Source: a virus. From it: a DNA stretch of 62,654 nt. Under the pieces are notes generated by a model, which saw only the letters and a list, made by a program, of their open reading frames with translations, was not told the DNA's origin and did no database searches. The stretch lies in IMG/VR virus record IMGVR_UViG_3300045988_095058, one strand, 5' to 3'. The position numbers and the translations under genes were made by a program. Shown one piece after another: positions 3,201 to 37,045 of the stretch; positions within the stretch are counted from its first letter, which is position 1, and every line of letters starts with the position of its first letter.

Positions 3201-3673
3201 GATTGCTTAATAGCGTATGCAGGGTTATAGCCTCCGCTTATTCTGGGGTGCCAGTGCATATAGAGGAGGTTCCTAATAACTTTGAGCGTAACAGCTTTTA
3301 TGTAACGCTGGCTACAGGCAGTAGCGAGCTAAAAAATCTCAATGTGTATGAGGATGATCCGATATTCCAGATTGTTTACTTTGCGAAAAGAAACGAGGCT
3401 AATCAAGTGGTAGCAGAAAAGCTCTATGAGGTAAAGGAGGAGCTTAAAAGGCTTTTCCTCCTTAAGAGGGTTGTACCTGTGATCCCTTTAGCTGGAGTAA
3501 AGGAAAAACCCAGATATGCAAAGATAGAGAATTACTCCGATGATGTGAGGGTTAGTGAGGGGGCTTTATATGTAAAGATCACTCTCAACTTTACAGAGGA
3601 TGTACCTGTAGAGGATAACTATGAGCTTATCGGAGATGTGGATATTGAAACAAAGACAGTAACAAACGGATAG
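3197..3673 (+). CDS. Tail terminator / tail completion protein
   Basis: 158 aa. ATGA overlap with the upstream gene, directly upstream of the sheath gene. Confidence 0.4.
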   Translation: MRLLNSVCRVIASAYSGVPVHIEEVPNNFERNSFYVTLATGSSELKNLNVYEDDPIFQIVYFAKRNEANQVVAEKLYEVKEELKRLFLLKRVVPVIPLAGVKEKPRYAKIENYSDDVRVSEGALYVKITLNFTEDVPVEDNYELIGDVDIETKTVTNG

Positions 3674-3686
3674 GAGGTTAAACAGA

Positions 3687-4790
3687 ATGGGATTACCAGA
3701 TATTATTATTGAGTTTTCCAAAAAGGCAGTAACAGCCATCCAGAACGGATCTACAGGCATTGTAGGTATTATGCTTAAGGATGCCAAAAACAAGGGGGCT
3801 ATGGTGCTCCGTAGTGTGGATGAGATCCCTACTGGAGATAGTGCTTTTAGTGCAGAGAATACCGCTTATATTGAGAGAGCGTTTATTGGCTCTCCATCTA
3901 AGGTAATTATCTACACGATGGATACAACAGCAGAGAGTTACGATGAGGCTACAAAGTATTTTGCTACACAGAAAGTAAATTACATTGTAGGAGCTCCAGA
4001 TCTTACCACAGAGGAGGCTACTAAGCTGGCTACATGGGTTAAGGGTATCAGAAAGAACTCTGTACGCAGACCTGTAGCAGTACTCCCTAAGACCGCTGGA
4101 GATAGCAGGGGCGTTATTAACTTTGAGGTAGTAAACAGCTCCGCTACAGATAAGATCGAGGTAGGAGAAAAGCAGTACACAGAGGCGGAGTACTGTAGTA
4201 GAATTGCTGGCTTGTTAGCTGGCTTAGATCTCAGAGTATCCGCTACCTATAAGCCTCTTACTGAGGTAACAGCTATCCCTCTGGTAGATAGTGATGAGGA
4301 AGTAGATACCGCTATTGATGCTGGTAAGCTCACTCTCTATAACGATGGAGAGCGTGTTGTAATTGCAAGAGGTGTAAACTCTCTCACTACAGTTACAGAG
4401 GTAGAAACAGCGGATCTCCAGAAAATCAAGATCAATGCTATACAGGATCAGATTGAGGGAGATATTTACAGCACTATTAACAAGAGCTACATCGGTAACT
4501 ACAGTAACTCTTATGATAACAAGTGCTTACTCATTACAGCTATCAAGGGCTACCTTAGAGGGCTGGAGGCTACAGAGGGCGGTAAGGGCTGGCTTAAGGC
4601 AGACAGCTCTACTATGGAGATCAATGTAGCTAAGCAGAAACAGTACTTAGAGAGTATCGGAGTAGATACCTCTGAGATGGATGAGCAGGCTATTAAGGAG
4701 GCTAATACAGGCTCTCATGTATTCCTTAAGGGTACTATCTCTATCTTAGATGCTATCGAGGATGTAGATATTTTCATCAATAAGGATTAA
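3687..4790 (+). CDS. Contractile tail sheath protein (XkdK-like)
   Basis: 367 aa with an MGLPDIIIEF N-terminus typical of Firmicute myophage sheaths. Followed by the tube gene. Confidence 0.75.
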   Translation: MGLPDIIIEFSKKAVTAIQNGSTGIVGIMLKDAKNKGAMVLRSVDEIPTGDSAFSAENTAYIERAFIGSPSKVIIYTMDTTAESYDEATKYFATQKVNYIVGAPDLTTEEATKLATWVKGIRKNSVRRPVAVLPKTAGDSRGVINFEVVNSSATDKIEVGEKQYTEAEYCSRIAGLLAGLDLRVSATYKPLTEVTAIPLVDSDEEVDTAIDAGKLTLYNDGERVVIARGVNSLTTVTEVETADLQKIKINAIQDQIEGDIYSTINKSYIGNYSNSYDNKCLLITAIKGYLRGLEATEGGKGWLKADSSTMEINVAKQKQYLESIGVDTSEMDEQAIKEANTGSHVFLKGTISILDAIEDVDIFINKD

Positions 4791-12682: not shown

Positions 12683-13547
12683 AGAGATTGATCTATTAGG
12701 CTATTGGATGCCTGTACTCCGACAGCTTAAAGAGTTTAAGGAGATAGCAAAGGCGGAAACGCCAGAGCTTAAGTACATCCTAGAACAGGTTGAGCGTACT
12801 CTTAACAATATGTTTATTGAAACAGCGGATGAGTACGGTATTAAGCGTTTTGAGGATATGATGGGTATTTACCCAGAGGCAGGAGCCAGCCTAGAAACAA
12901 GGCGTTTTAATGTGCTGGTTAAGTGGAATGATAAAGTACCTTATACGGAGAAAGAGCTTTATAACAGGCTTATTAGTATCTGTGGAGATGATAACTTTAG
13001 CGTTAATCCAGATTATAAAAATTATTTTGTAGAGATTATAACTCATTTAGGGATAGAGGGGGCGTTTGATACGATCTCCTCTATTTTGCAGGATATGATC
13101 CCCTGTAATCTGGTGCTGGATCTTAAAAACACTCTGGAGGAGGGAAATACAACTCCTTTTAGTGTGGCGGTAGTATCCTGTGTGGCTATGAGGTATCAGA
13201 TCACGAACGATATTAACCCTAAGGTAGCTACAGAGAGCCCTATGTACTACGGTGTAGGCTTAGGTAGAGCTGGTACTCACATTATCACTCACGATATAAA
13301 GAGTACTGTAAATAAGAGCTCAGATCTCAATATAGCACAGGCATTATCTACAGGAGGCTCCTCTGGAGCTATCACAATGGATATAGCTGTAAAGGATGAG
13401 GTAGAAAGCCCTCATTATGAGGGAGTAGGCGTTGGAATGGCGTTTACAAAAATCATTACCCACGATATTAACAGCAAAGCAACTAACAGCGGTAATACTA
13501 CTGTAGCAAGCCCTGTAAACACAGCTACAGTTATTACAATAAATTAA
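12666..13547 (+). CDS. XkdU/YmfQ-like tail protein with a repeated C-terminal extension
   Basis: The N-terminal half resembles DUF2313-type proteins. The C-terminus carries two copies of ESP.Y.GVG.G.A.T.IITHDI. Confidence 0.55.
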   Translation: MFILAREIDLLGYWMPVLRQLKEFKEIAKAETPELKYILEQVERTLNNMFIETADEYGIKRFEDMMGIYPEAGASLETRRFNVLVKWNDKVPYTEKELYNRLISICGDDNFSVNPDYKNYFVEIITHLGIEGAFDTISSILQDMIPCNLVLDLKNTLEEGNTTPFSVAVVSCVAMRYQITNDINPKVATESPMYYGVGLGRAGTHIITHDIKSTVNKSSDLNIAQALSTGGSSGAITMDIAVKDEVESPHYEGVGVGMAFTKIITHDINSKATNSGNTTVASPVNTATVITIN

Positions 13548-13566
13548 AGAAAAGGAGTGTGATAAA

Positions 13567-15372
13567 ATGGGTGCTTTTAAGAGTGCAGTAATCACAAAAA
13601 AAGGACAGGAACTCTTAGCAAAAGTGGTAGCAGGTACTACTAAGCTGGAGTTTACTAAGATCAAGGTATCCGATACTAAGTTATCTGGAGATCTGGCAAG
13701 TATGACAGGTATCGGTACTATCAAACAGGAGGAAAAGGTAGCCTCTGTAGTGAGAAAAAATGGATCTAATGTTACAGTATCCGCTAGTTTCTCTAATCAG
13801 ACCTTAGGGCAGGGTTATTATGTAAGAAACTTAGGACTTTATGCAAATGATCCACAGGCTGGAGAGATCCTCTACAGTATCTCAGTGGCAGATGAGAGTA
13901 CCGCTACAGCGGATTATATGCCTCCATTTAATGGTATCGGTGTAAGCTCCCTTATGGTGGATCTTGTAACAGCGGTATCTAATGCCTCTAGCGTAAAGGT
14001 AAACGTAGATCCTACCGCTGGAGCCACAGTAGCACAGATCGTTAATGTACAGGAGCAGATTGACGATGTTAAGAGCTTTGTAGGCTATGAGAGCTCCGAT
14101 GTATACGGTGTGGAGATTGATTTTCCTAATAGGCGGTTTACCAGAATTGCAGGAGCAGAAAATCTTACCGCTGGAGCTGATTTTGATAAGCTCAATCCGT
14201 GGGGCGGTAGAAAGAGATGCATCTTAGCTGATGATGGTACAGTACTTGCATACAGAGGAGAAACAGGATACACAGAGGCAGGAGCTACTACTGTAGAGCT
14301 TAAAAAGACAGTAGACGGAGCAGAAAAAACCTATGCTAGTGGTACTAAGGTACAGGTAATGGTAGAACAGCCTGTATTTTATGTTAAGGCTGTACCTGTA
14401 AGCTCTAAGAACGCTACCAGCGGTAAGGGTAAGCAGTACACTAAGGGTAGATTTTATATCAGCCCTACACCTAAGGCAGGATTTACAGCTCCTAGAGCCT
14501 TTTACGATAATCACGGTATCGTACAGGATAAGATCTATCTCTCAGCGTTTGAGGGCTGTATTTATGATACAGATGCTAAAAAGTATCTTACAGCGGATGA
14601 GCAGGTAGCGGATTTTGCTACAGATATGCTCTCATCTATTGCAGGTGCTAAGCCAGCCAGTGGACTTACACAGAACCTCACAAGAGCGAATGTGAGAAAG
14701 CTCTGTGCTAACAGAGGTGCAGGCTGGGAAAGTCATAGTATTTTTGCTATGGCGGTTACAGAGTGGCTCCTTATGATTGAGTATGCTAGTTTAGATGCTC
14801 AGCGTAAAGTAGGTAGAGGCGTTTGTGATTTTACCGATGATGGTAAAACTAATATGGCTGTAGTAACAGGTGCTACCTCTGGATTAGGTAATGGATCTGG
14901 TATTGATCCTAACGGTGGTGTAGATGGTAAGTGCTCAGTATCTTACAGAGGAGAAGAAAATCTCTGGGGCAATATCTGGACTTGGCTGGATAAGGTAAAT
15001 ATCTTAGCTAAAGGACAGAATGAGGTATTTGTGCATGAGATCGGAGCTACAGTAGCAGATGATACTACCACAGGATACAAGAGCTTAGGCTATCACTGGA
15101 GCCATAGTAACGGCTATCAAAGTGCCTTTGGTATTGATCCAGAGCATCCAGAGTTACTTATCCCTACAGAGGCTAGTGGATCGGATGTATTCACAGGTAA
15201 CTTTGTATGGCAGAATTACACCTACAACGGTTTCTTGATTGCTAAGTTGGGCGGTCTATGGGGTAGTGGCTCTAGTTGCGGTTTCGATCTGAGTGGTAGT
15301 AGTGCCTCTGGTTATCGCTATCGTAGTATCGGCGGTCGCTTGCTGTATGTGCCTCAAACAAAGGTTGCTTAA
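13567..15372 (+). CDS. Tail fibre protein; the DGR variable (target) protein, with the VR in its C-terminal lectin/FGE-like domain
   Basis: 601 aa. N-terminus looks like a tail-collar fibre domain. C-terminus has the NLWGNIWTW segment typical of FGE/C-type-lectin folds. The last ~42 codons form the VR. Confidence 0.85.
   Translation: MGAFKSAVITKKGQELLAKVVAGTTKLEFTKIKVSDTKLSGDLASMTGIGTIKQEEKVASVVRKNGSNVTVSASFSNQTLGQGYYVRNLGLYANDPQAGEILYSISVADESTATADYMPPFNGIGVSSLMVDLVTAVSNASSVKVNVDPTAGATVAQIVNVQEQIDDVKSFVGYESSDVYGVEIDFPNRRFTRIAGAENLTAGADFDKLNPWGGRKRCILADDGTVLAYRGETGYTEAGATTVELKKTVDGAEKTYASGTKVQVMVEQPVFYVKAVPVSSKNATSGKGKQYTKGRFYISPTPKAGFTAPRAFYDNHGIVQDKIYLSAFEGCIYDTDAKKYLTADEQVADFATDMLSSIAGAKPASGLTQNLTRANVRKLCANRGAGWESHSIFAMAVTEWLLMIEYASLDAQRKVGRGVCDFTDDGKTNMAVVTGATSGLGNGSGIDPNGGVDGKCSVSYRGEENLWGNIWTWLDKVNILAKGQNEVFVHEIGATVADDTTTGYKSLGYHWSHSNGYQSAFGIDPEHPELLIPTEASGSDVFTGNFVWQNYTYNGFLIAKLGGLWGSGSSCGFDLSGSSASGYRYRSIGGRLLYVPQTKVA
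15229..15355 (+). repeat. DGR variable repeat (VR)
   Basis: Aligns to 15463..15589 at a constant offset of 234 nt. 100 of 127 positions are identical, and all 27 differences fall at TR adenines. Confidence 0.9.
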
Positions 15373-15398
15373 ATCTTTGAGGAAAAATAAATAAAATC

Positions 15399-15447
15399 AA
15401 AAAGGGTAATAGGAGGAGCTGGAAAGCTCTTTTTTATTACCCTTTTT
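15399..15447 (+). terminator. Long hairpin plus T-run after the fibre gene; candidate DGR homing-enhancing stem-loop
   Basis: AAAAAGGGTAATA pairs with TATTACCCTTTTT. The inner stem is AGCT/AGCT with a GGAA loop, and GGAGG opposes a T-run (G-U pairs in RNA). Confidence 0.65.
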
Positions 15448-15462
15448 GTCGGTAGCTGATAA

Positions 15463-15589
15463 GGTTTCTTAATTACTAAATTAGGCAGTAAATGGAATAA
15501 TGGCTCTAATTGCAGTTTCAATCTGAATGGTAATAATACCTCTGGTAATCGCAATCGTAATATCAGCAGTCACTTACTATATGTGCATA
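15463..15589 (+). repeat. DGR template repeat (TR)
   Basis: Non-coding and adenine-rich. Read in the VR frame it contains 10 AAT codons. Confidence 0.9.
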
Positions 15590-15872
15590 TAAAAATAAAA
15601 GAAAATCAGAGAAATATGTGTTCACTGTGACACTTATTTTACATTAAGTGAGTAACAGCTACCGTGGCTCTTGCCAGAACATAAAACTCCTCTATGAGGA
15701 GCGGTAAAAAATAGCTAAGAGGGTGCTTATGTGCGGAGAAATCCGTAAACCATGTTAGCCTAGCAAGCTAAGAACTGATTGTTATGTGAACGATAGCACA
15801 GGGGTACTACAGCAGGTAGTTAGCTCCCTCTTATGCACATACAAAATTATGATAAGGTGGGTGCCAAAACAC
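15590..15872 (+). ncRNA. Putative DGR RNA spacer region between the TR and the RT start
   Basis: 283 nt with no convincing ORF. Contains local hairpins such as CTCCTCtatGAGGAG and TTAGCctagcaaGCTAA. Confidence 0.4.
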
Positions 15873-17123
15873 ATGAAAGATACTGGAGATTTATTTTCTA
15901 AGATATGCGATATGGATAATCTTAGAAAAGCCCACAAGAACGCAAAGAGAGGTAAAGGGTGGTATGCAGAGGTAAAGCGTATAGAAAAAGATCTGGATCA
16001 TTACCTAAGGAGGCTACAGGAAAATCTAATAGAACACAGGTATCATACCTCAGACTATGAAACTTTTGTAAGAAAAGAGGGGAGTAAGGAGAGGGAGATT
16101 TATAAGTTACCGTACTATCCAGACCGTATATGTCAATGGGCTATCTTACAGGTTATAGAGCCCTACTTACTTAATTCCATGACAAAAGATACCTATAGTG
16201 CAATCCCTAACAGAGGGATCCAGCCTATTATCAATCAATTACGAGGGTATAAGAAAAAGATTAAGAAAGATGGAAAAGTAGTAGCGGAGAAGTGGATACC
16301 CAGTATTTTAGTATCAGATCCAGAGGCTACAAAGTATTGCTTAAAGCTGGATGTAAGAAAGTATTATCCCAGCATTGTACACGATGTACTAAAGGCTAAG
16401 TATAGAGAGCTCTTTAAGGATGAGGAGCTTATCTGGTTAATGGATGAGATCATAGATAGTATTAGTACTTGTCCAGCCACAGAGGAAAATATAGAGATCC
16501 TCCAGAGGCTAGGTGTGGCGGTAAATATTATCATAGACGATAACGGTAGAGAGTTTGTGGATGGCGTAGGTATTCCTATTGGAAACTATGTTAGCCAGTA
16601 TGACGGTAATTTTAATCTATCTGTAGTAGATCACTGGCTCAAAGAGGTTAAGGGCGTTAAGTACTACTTTAGATACATGGATGATATGGTTATTTTCGGT
16701 AGCAGTAAAGAGGAATTACACAAACTCAAAAGAGAGTTAGATGAGTTTATGGCGGTAAATCTTAAGCAGGTGCTTAAGCATAACTGGCAGGTATTTCCTA
16801 CTAAGGTAAGAGGTGTAGATTTTGTAGGCTATAGATTTTTCGGAGAATATACCTTACTCAGAAAATCGACTTGCAAAACATTTAAGCGTAGGATGCTTAG
16901 CATCTCCAGTAAAAGAGAAAACAATGTGAGCCCTACTTATAGTGAGTGGTGCTCATTTAATAGCTATGTGGGCTGGCTACAGCATTGTGATAGCTTTAGG
17001 CTATACCAGAAATATGTAGAGCCTAATGTAGAATATATGCACAATTATTACTTAAAGGAGGTAAAAGGTAATGCAGAAATTTGTAAACGTAAGAACTACA
17101 GCGGAGAGCGTAAAGCCTCTTGA
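15873..17123 (+). CDS. DGR reverse transcriptase
   Basis: YMDD at 16674..16685 and the DGR-type IGNYVSQ motif at 16578..16598. N-terminus is MKDTGDLFSKICDMDNLRKAHKNAKRGK. The ORF-track start at 15786 is probably a non-coding extension. Confidence 0.9.
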   Translation: MKDTGDLFSKICDMDNLRKAHKNAKRGKGWYAEVKRIEKDLDHYLRRLQENLIEHRYHTSDYETFVRKEGSKEREIYKLPYYPDRICQWAILQVIEPYLLNSMTKDTYSAIPNRGIQPIINQLRGYKKKIKKDGKVVAEKWIPSILVSDPEATKYCLKLDVRKYYPSIVHDVLKAKYRELFKDEELIWLMDEIIDSISTCPATEENIEILQRLGVAVNIIIDDNGREFVDGVGIPIGNYVSQYDGNFNLSVVDHWLKEVKGVKYYFRYMDDMVIFGSSKEELHKLKRELDEFMAVNLKQVLKHNWQVFPTKVRGVDFVGYRFFGEYTLLRKSTCKTFKRRMLSISSKRENNVSPTYSEWCSFNSYVGWLQHCDSFRLYQKYVEPNVEYMHNYYLKEVKGNAEICKRKNYSGERKAS

Positions 17124-17364
17124 GATTGATGATTACCATGTATATGTAAATACAGGTATCAAAGAGATCCATGAGGAGGTTAAGAAGGGAGATCTTAGCT
17201 CTGGGTTTGATGGGTTTGAAATTGAAACACAGGAGATCTATGAGAAAGATGAGTACATCCAGCTCATGGCAGAGAAAAACAGTTCCTTAGAGGAGCAGGC
17301 TACAGATTTACAGTTAGCCTTAGCAGATGTGTATGAGCAGATGTTGGGGTTATCAGCTAACTAA
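17071..17364 (+). CDS. Hypothetical acidic protein in the XkdW position
   Basis: 97 aa, RBS AAAGGAGGTAAAAGGTA, overlaps the RT 3' end by 53 nt. Confidence 0.55.
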   Translation: MQKFVNVRTTAESVKPLEIDDYHVYVNTGIKEIHEEVKKGDLSSGFDGFEIETQEIYEKDEYIQLMAEKNSSLEEQATDLQLALADVYEQMLGLSAN

Positions 17365-17381
17365 GAGGGAGGAGAAAGATT

Positions 17382-17492
17382 ATGGCACAGGTTTACGCTA
17401 CTTTGATCCGCAAAGGGTTAAGGACTATTGATAATATACCAAAGGATCTCAGAAAAGCCGTACAAAAAATCTTAGACGGAGATAATGAGTAG
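17382..17492 (+). CDS. Small protein (36 aa), paralog 1 of a tandem pair
   Basis: MAQVYATLIRKGLRTIDNIPKDLRKAVQKIL. RBS GGGAGGAG. Below the ORF-track cutoff. Confidence 0.5.
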   Translation: MAQVYATLIRKGLRTIDNIPKDLRKAVQKILDGDNE

Positions 17493-17544
17493 TATGTTAC
17501 TCAATATTATCTTAAAAACAATACTCAGAAAGGAGGTAAAGGCT

Positions 17545-17670
17545 ATGGCAGTAATTTACGCTACCCTTATTGTAAAGGGCAAAAAGACGATCAATGATGT
17601 ACCGCCAGTAATCAGAGAGCAGGTTAAGCAGATCCTCATTGATCTTGATTTACCAGAGCTTGCAGAGTAA
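17545..17670 (+). CDS. Small protein (41 aa), paralog 2 of a tandem pair
   Basis: MAVIYATLIVKGKKTINDVPPVIREQVKQIL. RBS AAAGGAGGTAAAGGCT. The track start at 17485 has no RBS. Confidence 0.55.
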   Translation: MAVIYATLIVKGKKTINDVPPVIREQVKQILIDLDLPELAE

Positions 17671-17678
17671 GCCACAGG

Positions 17679-17704
17679 GGGAGAGCTAAATGCTCTCCCT
17701 TTTA
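17679..17704 (+). terminator. Rho-independent terminator
   Basis: GGGAGAGC-taaat-GCTCTCCC followed by TTTT. Confidence 0.7.
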
Positions 17705-17726
17705 TTATGGCGGAAAGGAGGATCTT

Positions 17727-18041
17727 ATGGATATGGCTACAGATGCAGATATTAACATCGAGCACAGACTTACTGAGGTAGAACAGCGAGCAAAGAGTAA
17801 CACTAATCGACTTAATGAGCATGATGAGATACTCAAAAGTAACAGTGAGATGATCGGAGCTATAAAGGAGCTGGCTACTGAGGTTAAGTATATGCGTGGG
17901 GATCTGAATGAAACTGTTGAGAGGCTTAACAAGCTGGAGGGTAAGGATGGGGATAAGTGGGATAAATTCAAGTGGCTTATTGTAACAGGGCTTGTAACAC
18001 TTATCTTAGGATACTTAGCGGTTTCTGTAGGATTAAAGTAA
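17727..18041 (+). CDS. XhlA-like hemolysin / lysis accessory protein
   Basis: 104 aa with a coiled-coil N-terminus and a single C-terminal TM helix (WLIVTGLVTLILGYLAVSVGL). Lies upstream of the holin. Confidence 0.65.
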   Translation: MDMATDADINIEHRLTEVEQRAKSNTNRLNEHDEILKSNSEMIGAIKELATEVKYMRGDLNETVERLNKLEGKDGDKWDKFKWLIVTGLVTLILGYLAVSVGLK

Positions 18042-36494: not shown

Positions 36495-36532
36495 TCTAAA
36501 GAAACCTCCTTTATGTGATTAGGATCGATCAA
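36495..36532 (+). promoter_or_regulatory. Class-1 bipartite motif, copy E
   Basis: TCTAAA-N14-GTGATTAGGATCGATCAA. Embedded in a 12-bp inverted repeat that includes the RBS. Confidence 0.55.
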
Positions 36533-36553
36533 AACATAAAGGAGGTTTTTCTA

Positions 36554-37045
36554 TTGAAAGTAGATATTTTTAACACAGAAAACAAGTATAAGATAATCTA
36601 TGCAGATCCAGCATGGCTGTATAGAGATAAGGCGGTAGCAGGAGGGAGAGGGGCTGGATGCCATTATACAGTAACCAGATTAGAGGATATAAAGGCTCTC
36701 CCTGTAGAAAAGTTAGCAGATGATGATAGTGTGCTTTTTATGTGGGTTACAATGCCATTTTTAGAGGAGGCTTTTGATGTGATGAGATCATGGGGATTTG
36801 AGTATAAAACCTGTGCTTTTACATGGATAAAGCAGAATAAGAAAGCAGATACTCTCTTTTGGGGTATGGGTAATTGGACTAGAGCTAATGCGGAGTTATG
36901 TTTATTAGGTGTAAGAGGAAAGCCTAAGAGAATGGATGCAGGAGTACATAGTGTAATTATGAGCCACATAGAGGAGCACAGTAAAAAACCAGCGGAAACA
37001 AGAGATAGAATTGTAAAGTTAATGGCAGGGGGGGGGGCTACCTAA
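36554..37045 (+). CDS. MT-A70-family DNA adenine methyltransferase, truncated as read by the G10 tract
   Basis: TTG start 8 nt after GGAGG. Has YADPAW (DPPW-like motif) and EEHSKKPAETRDRI. The frame ends 8 nt after the G-run. Confidence 0.8.
   Translation: MKVDIFNTENKYKIIYADPAWLYRDKAVAGGRGAGCHYTVTRLEDIKALPVEKLADDDSVLFMWVTMPFLEEAFDVMRSWGFEYKTCAFTWIKQNKKADTLFWGMGNWTRANAELCLLGVRGKPKRMDAGVHSVIMSHIEEHSKKPAETRDRIVKLMAGGGAT
37028..37037. repeat. G10 homopolymer inside the methyltransferase gene
   Basis: Ten consecutive G, read directly. Confidence 0.95.

Follow-up and report, generated by a model that had tools for sequence, protein, structure and literature searches.

We analysed 62,654 nt of viral DNA (IMG/VR record IMGVR_UViG_3300045988_095058), the whole of which we call the window. 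It contains a phage tail fibre gene whose 3′ end recurs in the non-coding DNA downstream, followed by a structured spacer and a reverse transcriptase (RT) gene (Table 1). We ascribe this arrangement to a diversity-generating retroelement (DGR), with the upstream copy as the variable repeat (VR) and the downstream copy as the template repeat (TR).

A VR/TR pair that differs at template adenines

By scripted alignment, 15229..15355 and 15463..15589 matched without gaps at an offset of 234 nt and were identical at 100 of 127 positions. At each of the 27 mismatches the downstream copy has A, against 21 G, 3 C and 3 T in the upstream one. The downstream copy holds 42 adenines in its 127 nt, 15 of them unchanged, and the probability that all 27 mismatches would land on these adenines by chance is 3e-17. 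The upstream copy is in frame with the open reading frame (ORF) 13567..15372 and encodes the peptide GFLIAKLGGLWGSGSSCGFDLSGSSASGYRYRSIGGRLLYVP; read in the fibre frame, the downstream copy contains 10 AAT codons. An earlier sequence-only reading of this DNA had proposed a DGR from an alignment made by hand, and its alignment, mismatch and adenine counts, frame, peptide and AAT codons were all reproduced; mismatches at non-adenine template positions, which it had named as evidence against its proposal, were absent from the machine alignment. An A-masked scan of both strands found no third copy of the repeat in the window. The TR starts 91 nt past the fibre stop codon and ends 286 nt ahead of the RT start.

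Per-position counts over 30 VRs paired with one identical TR (see below) refined these assignments. Positions 15353 and 15355, both C/A mismatches, are constant in the 30 VRs and sited where the homology stops, so the repeat is 124 bp long (15229..15352 / 15463..15586) and not 127 bp as first read. The mutagenised tract (offsets 9–100) faces 34 TR adenines, and 18 codons varied among the 30 VRs; A was retained in ∼45% of cases, and G was more frequent than T or C among the changes. From the 34 adenines we computed a repertoire of about 3e20 DNA variants and 4e18 protein variants. The hypervariable positions hold 16 of the 27 window mismatches, to which the original view of the mismatches as hypervariation still applies, whereas about 11 are fixed differences and not current hypervariation. 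At the internal mismatches at offsets 13, 21, 25 and 52, G was fixed or nearly so among the 30 VRs.

At the 3′ end of the VR, offsets 101–124 were invariant among the 30 VRs sharing the TR. Here, G faced a TR adenine at offsets 103, 106, 110 and 117 in 30 of 30 VRs and at offset 114 in 28 of 30, and offset 119 was A in all 30. Offset 117 is four-fold degenerate (CTA-to-CTG), so selection on the protein cannot account for its fixed G. The CGC (VR)/CAC (TR) difference was kept in relatives with RT identity down to 40%. From this pattern, offsets 101–124 appear not to be overwritten and behave as an initiation of mutagenic homing (IMH) sequence, GGCGGTCGCTTGCTGTATGTGC, facing an IMH* sequence, AGCAGTCACTTACTATATGTGC, in the TR. 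In the general description given by Wu et al. 2018 (PMC5758913), the IMH is an imperfect repeat that follows the A-to-N region and is GC-rich at its start, and the window fits this.

Table 1. Coordinates of the DGR, its target gene and associated features in the window
Feature	Position	Strand	Basis or remark
Tail fibre target gene, 601 aa	13567..15372	+	Pfam Phage_tail_fib, PHROG 5302, AlphaFold2 (AF2)/Foldseek
VR, 124-bp homology core	15229..15352	+	Last 41 codons of the fibre repeat region
VR mutagenised tract, repeat offsets 9–100	15237..15328	+	Per-position counts over 30 VRs
IMH-like invariant VR 3′ end, …TCGGCGGTCGCTTGCTGTATGTGC	15329..15352	+	G+C-richer than its TR counterpart
Strong hairpin, then T run, 3′ of the fibre stop codon	15398..15449	+	DNA fold z-score −4.0
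TR, non-coding	15463..15586	+	Identical in 49 public loci
IMH*-like TR 3′ end	15563..15589	+	Its 10 terminal nt (15580-15589, TATGTGCATA) make up the closing-helix 5′ arm
Structured TR–RT spacer RNA, expanded relative of Rfam RT-17	15587..15872	+	RNAalifold, covariation
RT-17-like core	15660..15721	+	Hairpin TGGC-TCTT-GCCA (15665-15676), AGAACATAAAA, second hairpin (15687-15701), GGTA
Closing-helix 3′ arm, TATGCACATA	15832..15841	+	Pairs with TR 15580-15589
DGR reverse transcriptase, 416 aa	15873..17123	+	Pfam RVT_1; PHROG 1423, E 1e-121
ORF97, 97 aa, phrog_18126	17071..17364		Overlaps the RT stop codon; syntenic with the fibre gene in phages with and without a DGR

VRs diversify against a constant TR in public loci

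Eleven viral contigs with RTs 98–100% identical to that of the window carry its exact TR; a scan of viral contigs with the A-masked TR pattern found none beyond these 11. Together with the window they provide 12 copies with 11 different VRs, in which 31 of the 32 variable columns face a TR adenine. When metagenome contigs were added, the exact TR was present at 49 loci, which together carry 30 distinct VRs; that of the window is unique among these. In a pooled count, VRs had 231 G, 49 C and 42 T at TR adenines. Since one constant TR goes with 30 VRs whose variation is all but confined to TR adenines, we conclude that the element is active in nature; the pattern is the population signature of mutagenic retrohoming, in support of the adenine-specific process proposed in the sequence-only reading. 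Across the wider RT clade, down to an RT identity of ∼40%, we found 127–135 unique A-specific VR/TR pairs directly upstream of the RT. The window element is common in human-gut metagenomes, and one cluster of the fibre protein at 90% identity has 8,740 member sequences.

The RT belongs to the DGR class

The start of the RT was taken as the ATG at 15873 because relatives begin at that methionine and AAGGTGGG precedes it. Its best match among solved structures was the BPP-1 enzyme bRT (8ub7, E 1e-23), the next RT class following at 1.5e-9; the aligned 8ub7 sequence is identical to the BPP-1 brt translation. Compared directly, the window RT and bRT aligned over their full length at 27% identity (E 7e-30), and the window RT keeps GVGIPIGxxxSQ (as IPIGNYVSQ), YMDD and the residues equivalent to R74 and I181 of bRT. 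The bRT match and the motif alignment thus bear out the DGR-type RT, with YMDD and IGNYVSQ, that had been recognised from the letters. Against the NCBIfam models of group II intron, retron and Drt RTs, its scores were far below the cut-off in every case. PADLOC returned only generic matches, to DRT/UG RT models. At 416 versus 328 aa, the window RT is 88 aa longer than bRT, with insertions of ∼20 and ∼35 aa between regions aligned to bRT 126–175 and a C-terminal extension. Its nearest genomic relatives are in metagenome-assembled genomes of Lachnospiraceae (85% and 54% identity), and the nearest deposited phage RT is that of Psychrobacillus phage Perkons (45.6%); RTs of human-gut phages (crAss-like, Bacteroides and Faecalibacterium phages) are 37–38% identical.

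A structured spacer RNA pairs with the end of the TR

The spacer between TR and RT gave a weak match to Rfam RT-17 (RF03020) at 15660..15721, with 21.8 bits (E 0.46) below the gathering score of 40.4. In five related loci (L047, L049, L053, L058 and L062) with RTs 44–51% identical to ours, RT-17 was found above threshold (41.8–60 bits) at the same position in the spacer. The hairpin TGCC-TCTT-GGCA followed by AAAACA is common throughout the clade, and its stem variants (TGCC/GGCA, TGGC/GCCA, CGCC/GGCG) compensate one another. RNAalifold predicted 48 pairs from nine spacers, 19 of them with compensatory changes. Paired cells amounted to 98%, versus 36–55% with slid partners, and compensatory pairs to 19 versus 1–6; none of 500 shuffles attained the observed pairing, compensatory-pair or covariation values. 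The window spacer RNA is a divergent, expanded relative of RT-17.

The outermost helix of the spacer is formed with the TR itself: 15580-15589 pairs with 15832-15841 over 10 bp. We tested this pairing in relatives by comparing the longest perfect helix with shuffles in place of an RNAduplex energy test, which gave too much noise with distant relatives and a negative result with BPP-1. A perfect helix of 8–13 bp between the TR end and the region before the RT was present in 11 of 18 lineages (p ≤ 0.05 versus shuffles), with differing arm sequences, and a twelfth (L055) had a helix of 8 bp at a borderline p = 0.056. The 5′ arm begins 4–8 nt short of the end of VR/TR homology in all of these 12 lineages but L018, where it lies at −14. 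In BPP-1, a few pairs between TR and spacer stand beside the priming adenosine, with TR U118 paired to spacer A56 and cDNA (complementary DNA) starting at G117 (PMC6182149). By analogy, A15841 is predicted to be the priming nucleotide, with the first copied base near 15579. Weinberg et al. 2017 located the RT-10 motif in the spacer of BPP-1 and conjectured that further DGRs are served by other RT motifs (PMC5737381).

Other RNA motifs occur in the related loci. Further above-threshold Rfam motifs were found at L139 5909-5986, L055 3865-3926 and L139 9706-9770; RT-18 immediately precedes the gene for a distantly related DGR RT, and RAGATH-18 and DUF3800-VIII RNAs occur elsewhere in the same phage regions.

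The VR lies in a predicted C-type lectin fold at the fibre tip

The fibre protein belongs to PHROG 5302, a tail protein (E 1e-157), and its N-terminus contains Pfam Phage_tail_fib (PF12571, tail-collar fibre domain; residues 7–151). The VR is carried by the C-terminal domain (about residues 301–601). Its 300 residues matched no Pfam family at E ≤ 0.01, and the same held for each of 62 homologues. A profile of the fibre family matched a single PDB sequence, 5vf4 (E 9.5e-4), whose last 42 residues align with the window VR and whose GNxWxW motif aligns as well. 5VF4 is TaqVP, the DGR variable protein of Thermus aquaticus, which has a C-type lectin fold (PMC6328139). We modelled the C-terminal domain with AF2 from an alignment of 60 sequences (pLDDT 75, pTM 0.78), and with Foldseek TaqVP was the sole significant fold match in the PDB (E 2.4e-6, probability 1.0). 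Matches in BFVD comprised 34 proteins, including gut-phage tail-collar fibres, crAss-like phage fibres, a sulfatase-modifying-factor-like (FGE-like) protein and a protein annotated as TvpA. The domain is therefore predicted to adopt the C-type lectin fold of DGR targets. The FGE/C-type-lectin-like tip suggested by the sequence-only reading is supported by the TaqVP and FGE-like matches of the model, which would place the likeness to FGE at the level of the fold only; the Pfam families FGE-sulfatase (PF03781) and DUF1566 (PF07603) did not match the domain.

Template adenines before G are almost always read as G

The fixed G at several internal sites of the VR follows a wider rule. In the window family, offsets 21 (a silent TTA to TTG change), 25 and 52 (15249, 15253 and 15280) have G in 30, 28 and 30 of 30 VRs, and clade-wide, a TR adenine that precedes G reads G in 91% of cases. 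At four-fold degenerate third positions within the tract, adenines before G gave 58 G, 6 A and no C or T (30 sites), and TTA|G sites gave 60 G and 3 A (14 sites). An independent TR family had 44 G out of 45 at five A-before-G sites, all other contexts being variable, and loci of the L029 family likewise show G at TR adenines before G. The rule is not absolute, since a dozen NAG sites at second codon positions kept A or became T.

In cells, DGRs normally show a strong A-to-G bias, and the error spectrum of bRT depends mainly on which base follows the adenine on its 3′ side (PMC12875486; bioRxiv 10.1101/2025.08.18.670894). With the BPP-1 DGR rebuilt in Escherichia coli, misincorporation of C, seen as A to G in the target, made up 59% of errors (PMC12875486). 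That C and T are missing at NAG can be explained by the published misincorporation of G by bRT in this context, which is 0.08% (PMC12875486). The ∼90% conversion of adenines before G is left unexplained by the published bRT spectrum, in which the average error is near 30%; the supplementary files of PMC12875486 contain no per-context error rates. We rejected protein-level selection as the cause of the fixed G at silent sites. Slippage or dislocation was rejected as well, as the predicted A-to-C changes before C and A-to-T changes before T were not seen. Candidate causes are a property of the RT specific to this clade or a bias arising after synthesis, for example G–T mismatch correction in the homing heteroduplex.

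Surroundings of the element and relatives without a DGR

The fibre gene comes after Baseplate_J and Mu Gp48 genes, and a holin, a CHAP-LysM lysin and a serine recombinase are encoded downstream. From this context of baseplate, lysin and recombinase genes, the phage is a temperate, contractile-tailed phage of the Bacillota type, and its hosts are probably Lachnospiraceae-type gut bacteria. A megablast search of positions 13000-18000 against deposited phages gave no match. In the close relatives L200 and L197 the DGR has been lost: TR and spacer are gone, as is most of the RT. In L200 (IMGVR_UViG_3300045988_064267), a fibre gene with the same IMH-like end abuts the last 58 RT codons (3421-4550); the loss takes in TR, spacer and about 1.07 kb of RT sequence.

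Two inverted repeats lie near the end of the fibre gene. The hairpin at 15398..15449 is most likely the fibre gene terminator, as the DGR-less relative L200 has a comparable hairpin after its fibre gene; it may instead be a DGR target-site stem–loop. In addition, a 7-bp inverted repeat, CCTCAAA...TTTGAGG (15352..15382), shares its first base with the end of the IMH-like segment and runs across the stop codon of the fibre gene; as relatives do not conserve it, its relevance to homing is doubtful. Elsewhere in the window, two tandem paralogous small ORFs (about 17364..17670; about 50% identical; phrog_1382, with a weak CD1375-like match) account for a direct repeat with an offset of 161 nt in our repeat scan. 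An adenine methyltransferase of the MT-A70 family is encoded at 36515..37045 (Pfam E 3e-22). BPP-1 also encodes an adenine methylase.

Mechanism and alternative explanations

In the mechanism we propose, the TR and the spacer 3′ of it would be transcribed as a single RNA, in which the spacer would fold in the manner of RT-17 and the 10-bp helix would set the 3′ end of the TR beside the spacer core. The RT would copy the TR into cDNA, misreading adenines mostly as G, and this cDNA would replace VR offsets 9–100 at the 3′ end of the fibre gene. The G+C-richer IMH-like end would never be overwritten and would mark the VR as recipient and the TR as donor. The outcome would be up to about 4e18 receptor-binding surfaces on a C-type lectin scaffold at the fibre tip. 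Within this scheme, we infer the self-priming of the RNA, the cDNA intermediate and the role of the IMH-like end from the parallel with BPP-1. What we observed directly (the anatomy of the repeats, the adenine specificity, the class of the RT, the diversification of VRs against a constant TR, the boundary of transfer, the covariation in the RNA and the predicted fold) leads us to hold, with little doubt, that the window element is a genuine, naturally active DGR that rewrites the tip of a phage tail fibre at template adenines without a recognised Avd.

Several observations weigh against this conclusion. Avd is essential in BPP-1, yet Pfam models revealed no avd homologue among the about 40 small ORFs scanned (about 10–15 were left out), and phmmer with BPP-1 Avd as the query found none among 457 ORFs. 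A GC-rich inverted repeat just 3′ of the IMH is present in 34% of DGRs; here, no conserved inverted repeat directly follows the IMH-like end, and the 15352-15382 hairpin is not conserved in relatives. A consensus scan of the + strand detected no sigma-70-like promoter for the TR–RT unit. Confidence in the fold model is medium (pLDDT 75), and domain residues 116–168 form a disordered stretch. Finally, the sequence comparisons point to activity of the lineage and not of this particular copy. The VR could be the frozen record of past homing by an element that is a DGR by descent and has fallen inactive in this genome. The window alone shows no current activity, no promoter was detected, and L200 and L197, with their TR, spacer and most of the RT lost, demonstrate that DGRs do decay in this phage group. 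We nevertheless consider inactivity improbable, given an intact RT ORF with YMDD and the DGR motif, intact helices in the spacer RNA, a TR that is the same in 48 other loci with differing VRs and a VR that is unique among the 30. A reading without any DGR would see in the TR a degenerate duplicate of the fibre 3′ end that has undergone G-to-A changes, through AT drift or deaminase-type hypermutation, by chance beside an unrelated RT such as that of a retron, a group II intron or a defence system. G/A transitions do make up 21 of the 27 differences, and the PADLOC matches were to generic DRT/UG RT models. However, the copy that should be decaying shows no variation across 49 loci and it is the coding copy that varies, C and T also occur at TR adenines (49 and 42 next to 231 G, pooled), and the same arrangement is found beside RTs of only 40% identity. 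The RT is also far closer to bRT than to retron or group II intron RTs and scores below every NCBIfam cut-off for those. The comparative data refute this explanation, and we grant it next to no credence.

A different question is whether a working DGR here needs an unrecognised accessory protein, an analogue of Avd encoded elsewhere in the phage or by the host. Avd proteins are very poorly conserved (PMC5758913), and several of the small ORFs scanned in the window have no family match. On the other hand, the gap between VR and TR is 110 nt here and 53–174 nt in nearly all relatives, leaving no room for avd at its usual site, and for cassettes without Avd, Wu et al. detected no avd gene at a remote site (PMC5758913). 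The sole small gene that always follows the RT in the clade, ORF97, directly follows fibre genes in eight RT-less phages (found by profile; a single-sequence locus search reached the same phage only) and shows no similarity to Avd. We therefore dismissed it as a DGR accessory and take it for a tail-module gene, probably of the fibre module; from its sequence it looks acidic, unlike the basic Avd. In three distant clade members (L066, L067 and L073), the VR–TR gap is ∼480 nt and holds a conserved ORF of 110–112 aa, which has no similarity to BPP-1 Avd or to any ORF of the window and could be a different accessory protein. All in all, we judge a hidden accessory to be unlikely for the window element, though a good deal less so than inactivity. 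As no Avd was found, homing is presumed to be Avd-independent, and the absence of Avd is already a known feature: Wu et al. 2018 reported 74% of DGRs with and 26% without avd and inferred Avd-independent homing for the latter (PMC5758913). Going further, the clade may consist of self-sufficient two-part DGRs, in which an enlarged RT (416 versus 328 aa) and an expanded RT-17-type RNA clamped by a helix of 8–13 bp replace Avd, and in which the RT or a post-synthesis step turns adenines before G near-deterministically into G. We offer this tentatively, as a possibility somewhat stronger than that of a hidden accessory and still short of an even chance. If it were true, TRs could hold 'hidden' adenines at scaffold glycine codons and silent sites harmlessly.

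Comparison with known systems

The likeness to BPP-1 invoked in the sequence-only reading holds for the adenine-specific mechanism and the RT and fails for avd, which has no counterpart here. As in BPP-1 (mtd-avd-TR-brt), the order is VR, TR, RT, and the VR lies at the 3′ end of a receptor-binding gene of the tail-fibre type. Both systems have adenine-specific differences, an AAY-rich TR, an invariant IMH-type end unlike the TR, a structured TR–RT spacer RNA that pairs with the 3′ end of the TR, and RTs that can be aligned from end to end and share IGxxxSQ, YMDD and the equivalents of R74 and I181. Apart from its missing avd and the VR–TR gap of 110 nt, the window differs in an RT that is only 27% identical and 88 aa longer, in a TR that uses AAT and not AAC, and in IMH/IMH* differences that are all G/A. 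Its spacer is of the RT-17 and not the RT-10 type and is closed by a helix of 10 bp versus a few pairs, no conserved GC-rich inverted repeat directly follows the IMH, and the fold of the target is nearest to TaqVP, Mtd not being among the significant PDB matches.

The Avd-less cassettes of Wu et al. 2018 (PMC5758913) are similar in their VR-TR-RT order, a single adjacent target of phage type, a C-type lectin VR and the lack of a recognisable accessory. TaqVP (5VF4) resembles the window fibre in carrying its VR at the very C-terminal end and in a GNxWxW-type motif that can be aligned (PMC6328139). The two share just 14–16% identity, with a TM score of 0.43–0.54 to the window domain, and TaqVP is cellular and not a phage fibre, whereas the window domain is fused to the N-terminus of a tail-collar fibre. 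Relatives of the window reach the gathering score of Rfam RT-17 (RF03020), and RT-10 has the same place in BPP-1 (PMC5737381). The window spacer is longer (about 285 nt versus 120–150 nt), has extra helices and scores 21.8 versus the 40.4 required, and the 3′-tail pairing of the motif with the TR end falls outside the Rfam model. With the DGRs of human-gut phages the window shares the habitat and a tail-fibre target with a C-type lectin tip, and their fibres are among its fold matches; it differs in its Mu/PBSX-like baseplate, serine recombinase, CHAP-LysM lysin and Lachnospiraceae-type host.

Implications

DGRs are very common in gut phages. The system described here is of a well-known kind, the absence of Avd and the RT-17-type RNA are within the described variation, and our understanding of DGRs is not changed by it. 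Its value is as a very clean natural example of a minimal DGR, comprising a VR, a TR, a spacer RNA and an RT, and no Avd. Because it is minimal, common in gut metagenomes and seen to be active from 30 VRs on one TR, it is a good candidate both for the reconstitution of mutagenic retrohoming without Avd and as a basis for engineered compact diversifiers. The locus further ties the orphan Rfam motif RT-17 to the template RNAs of DGRs and suggests a priming geometry, in which TR T15580 would be paired with A15841. For the phages themselves, the element marks the fibre tip as a host-range determinant of an abundant group of Lachnospiraceae phages.

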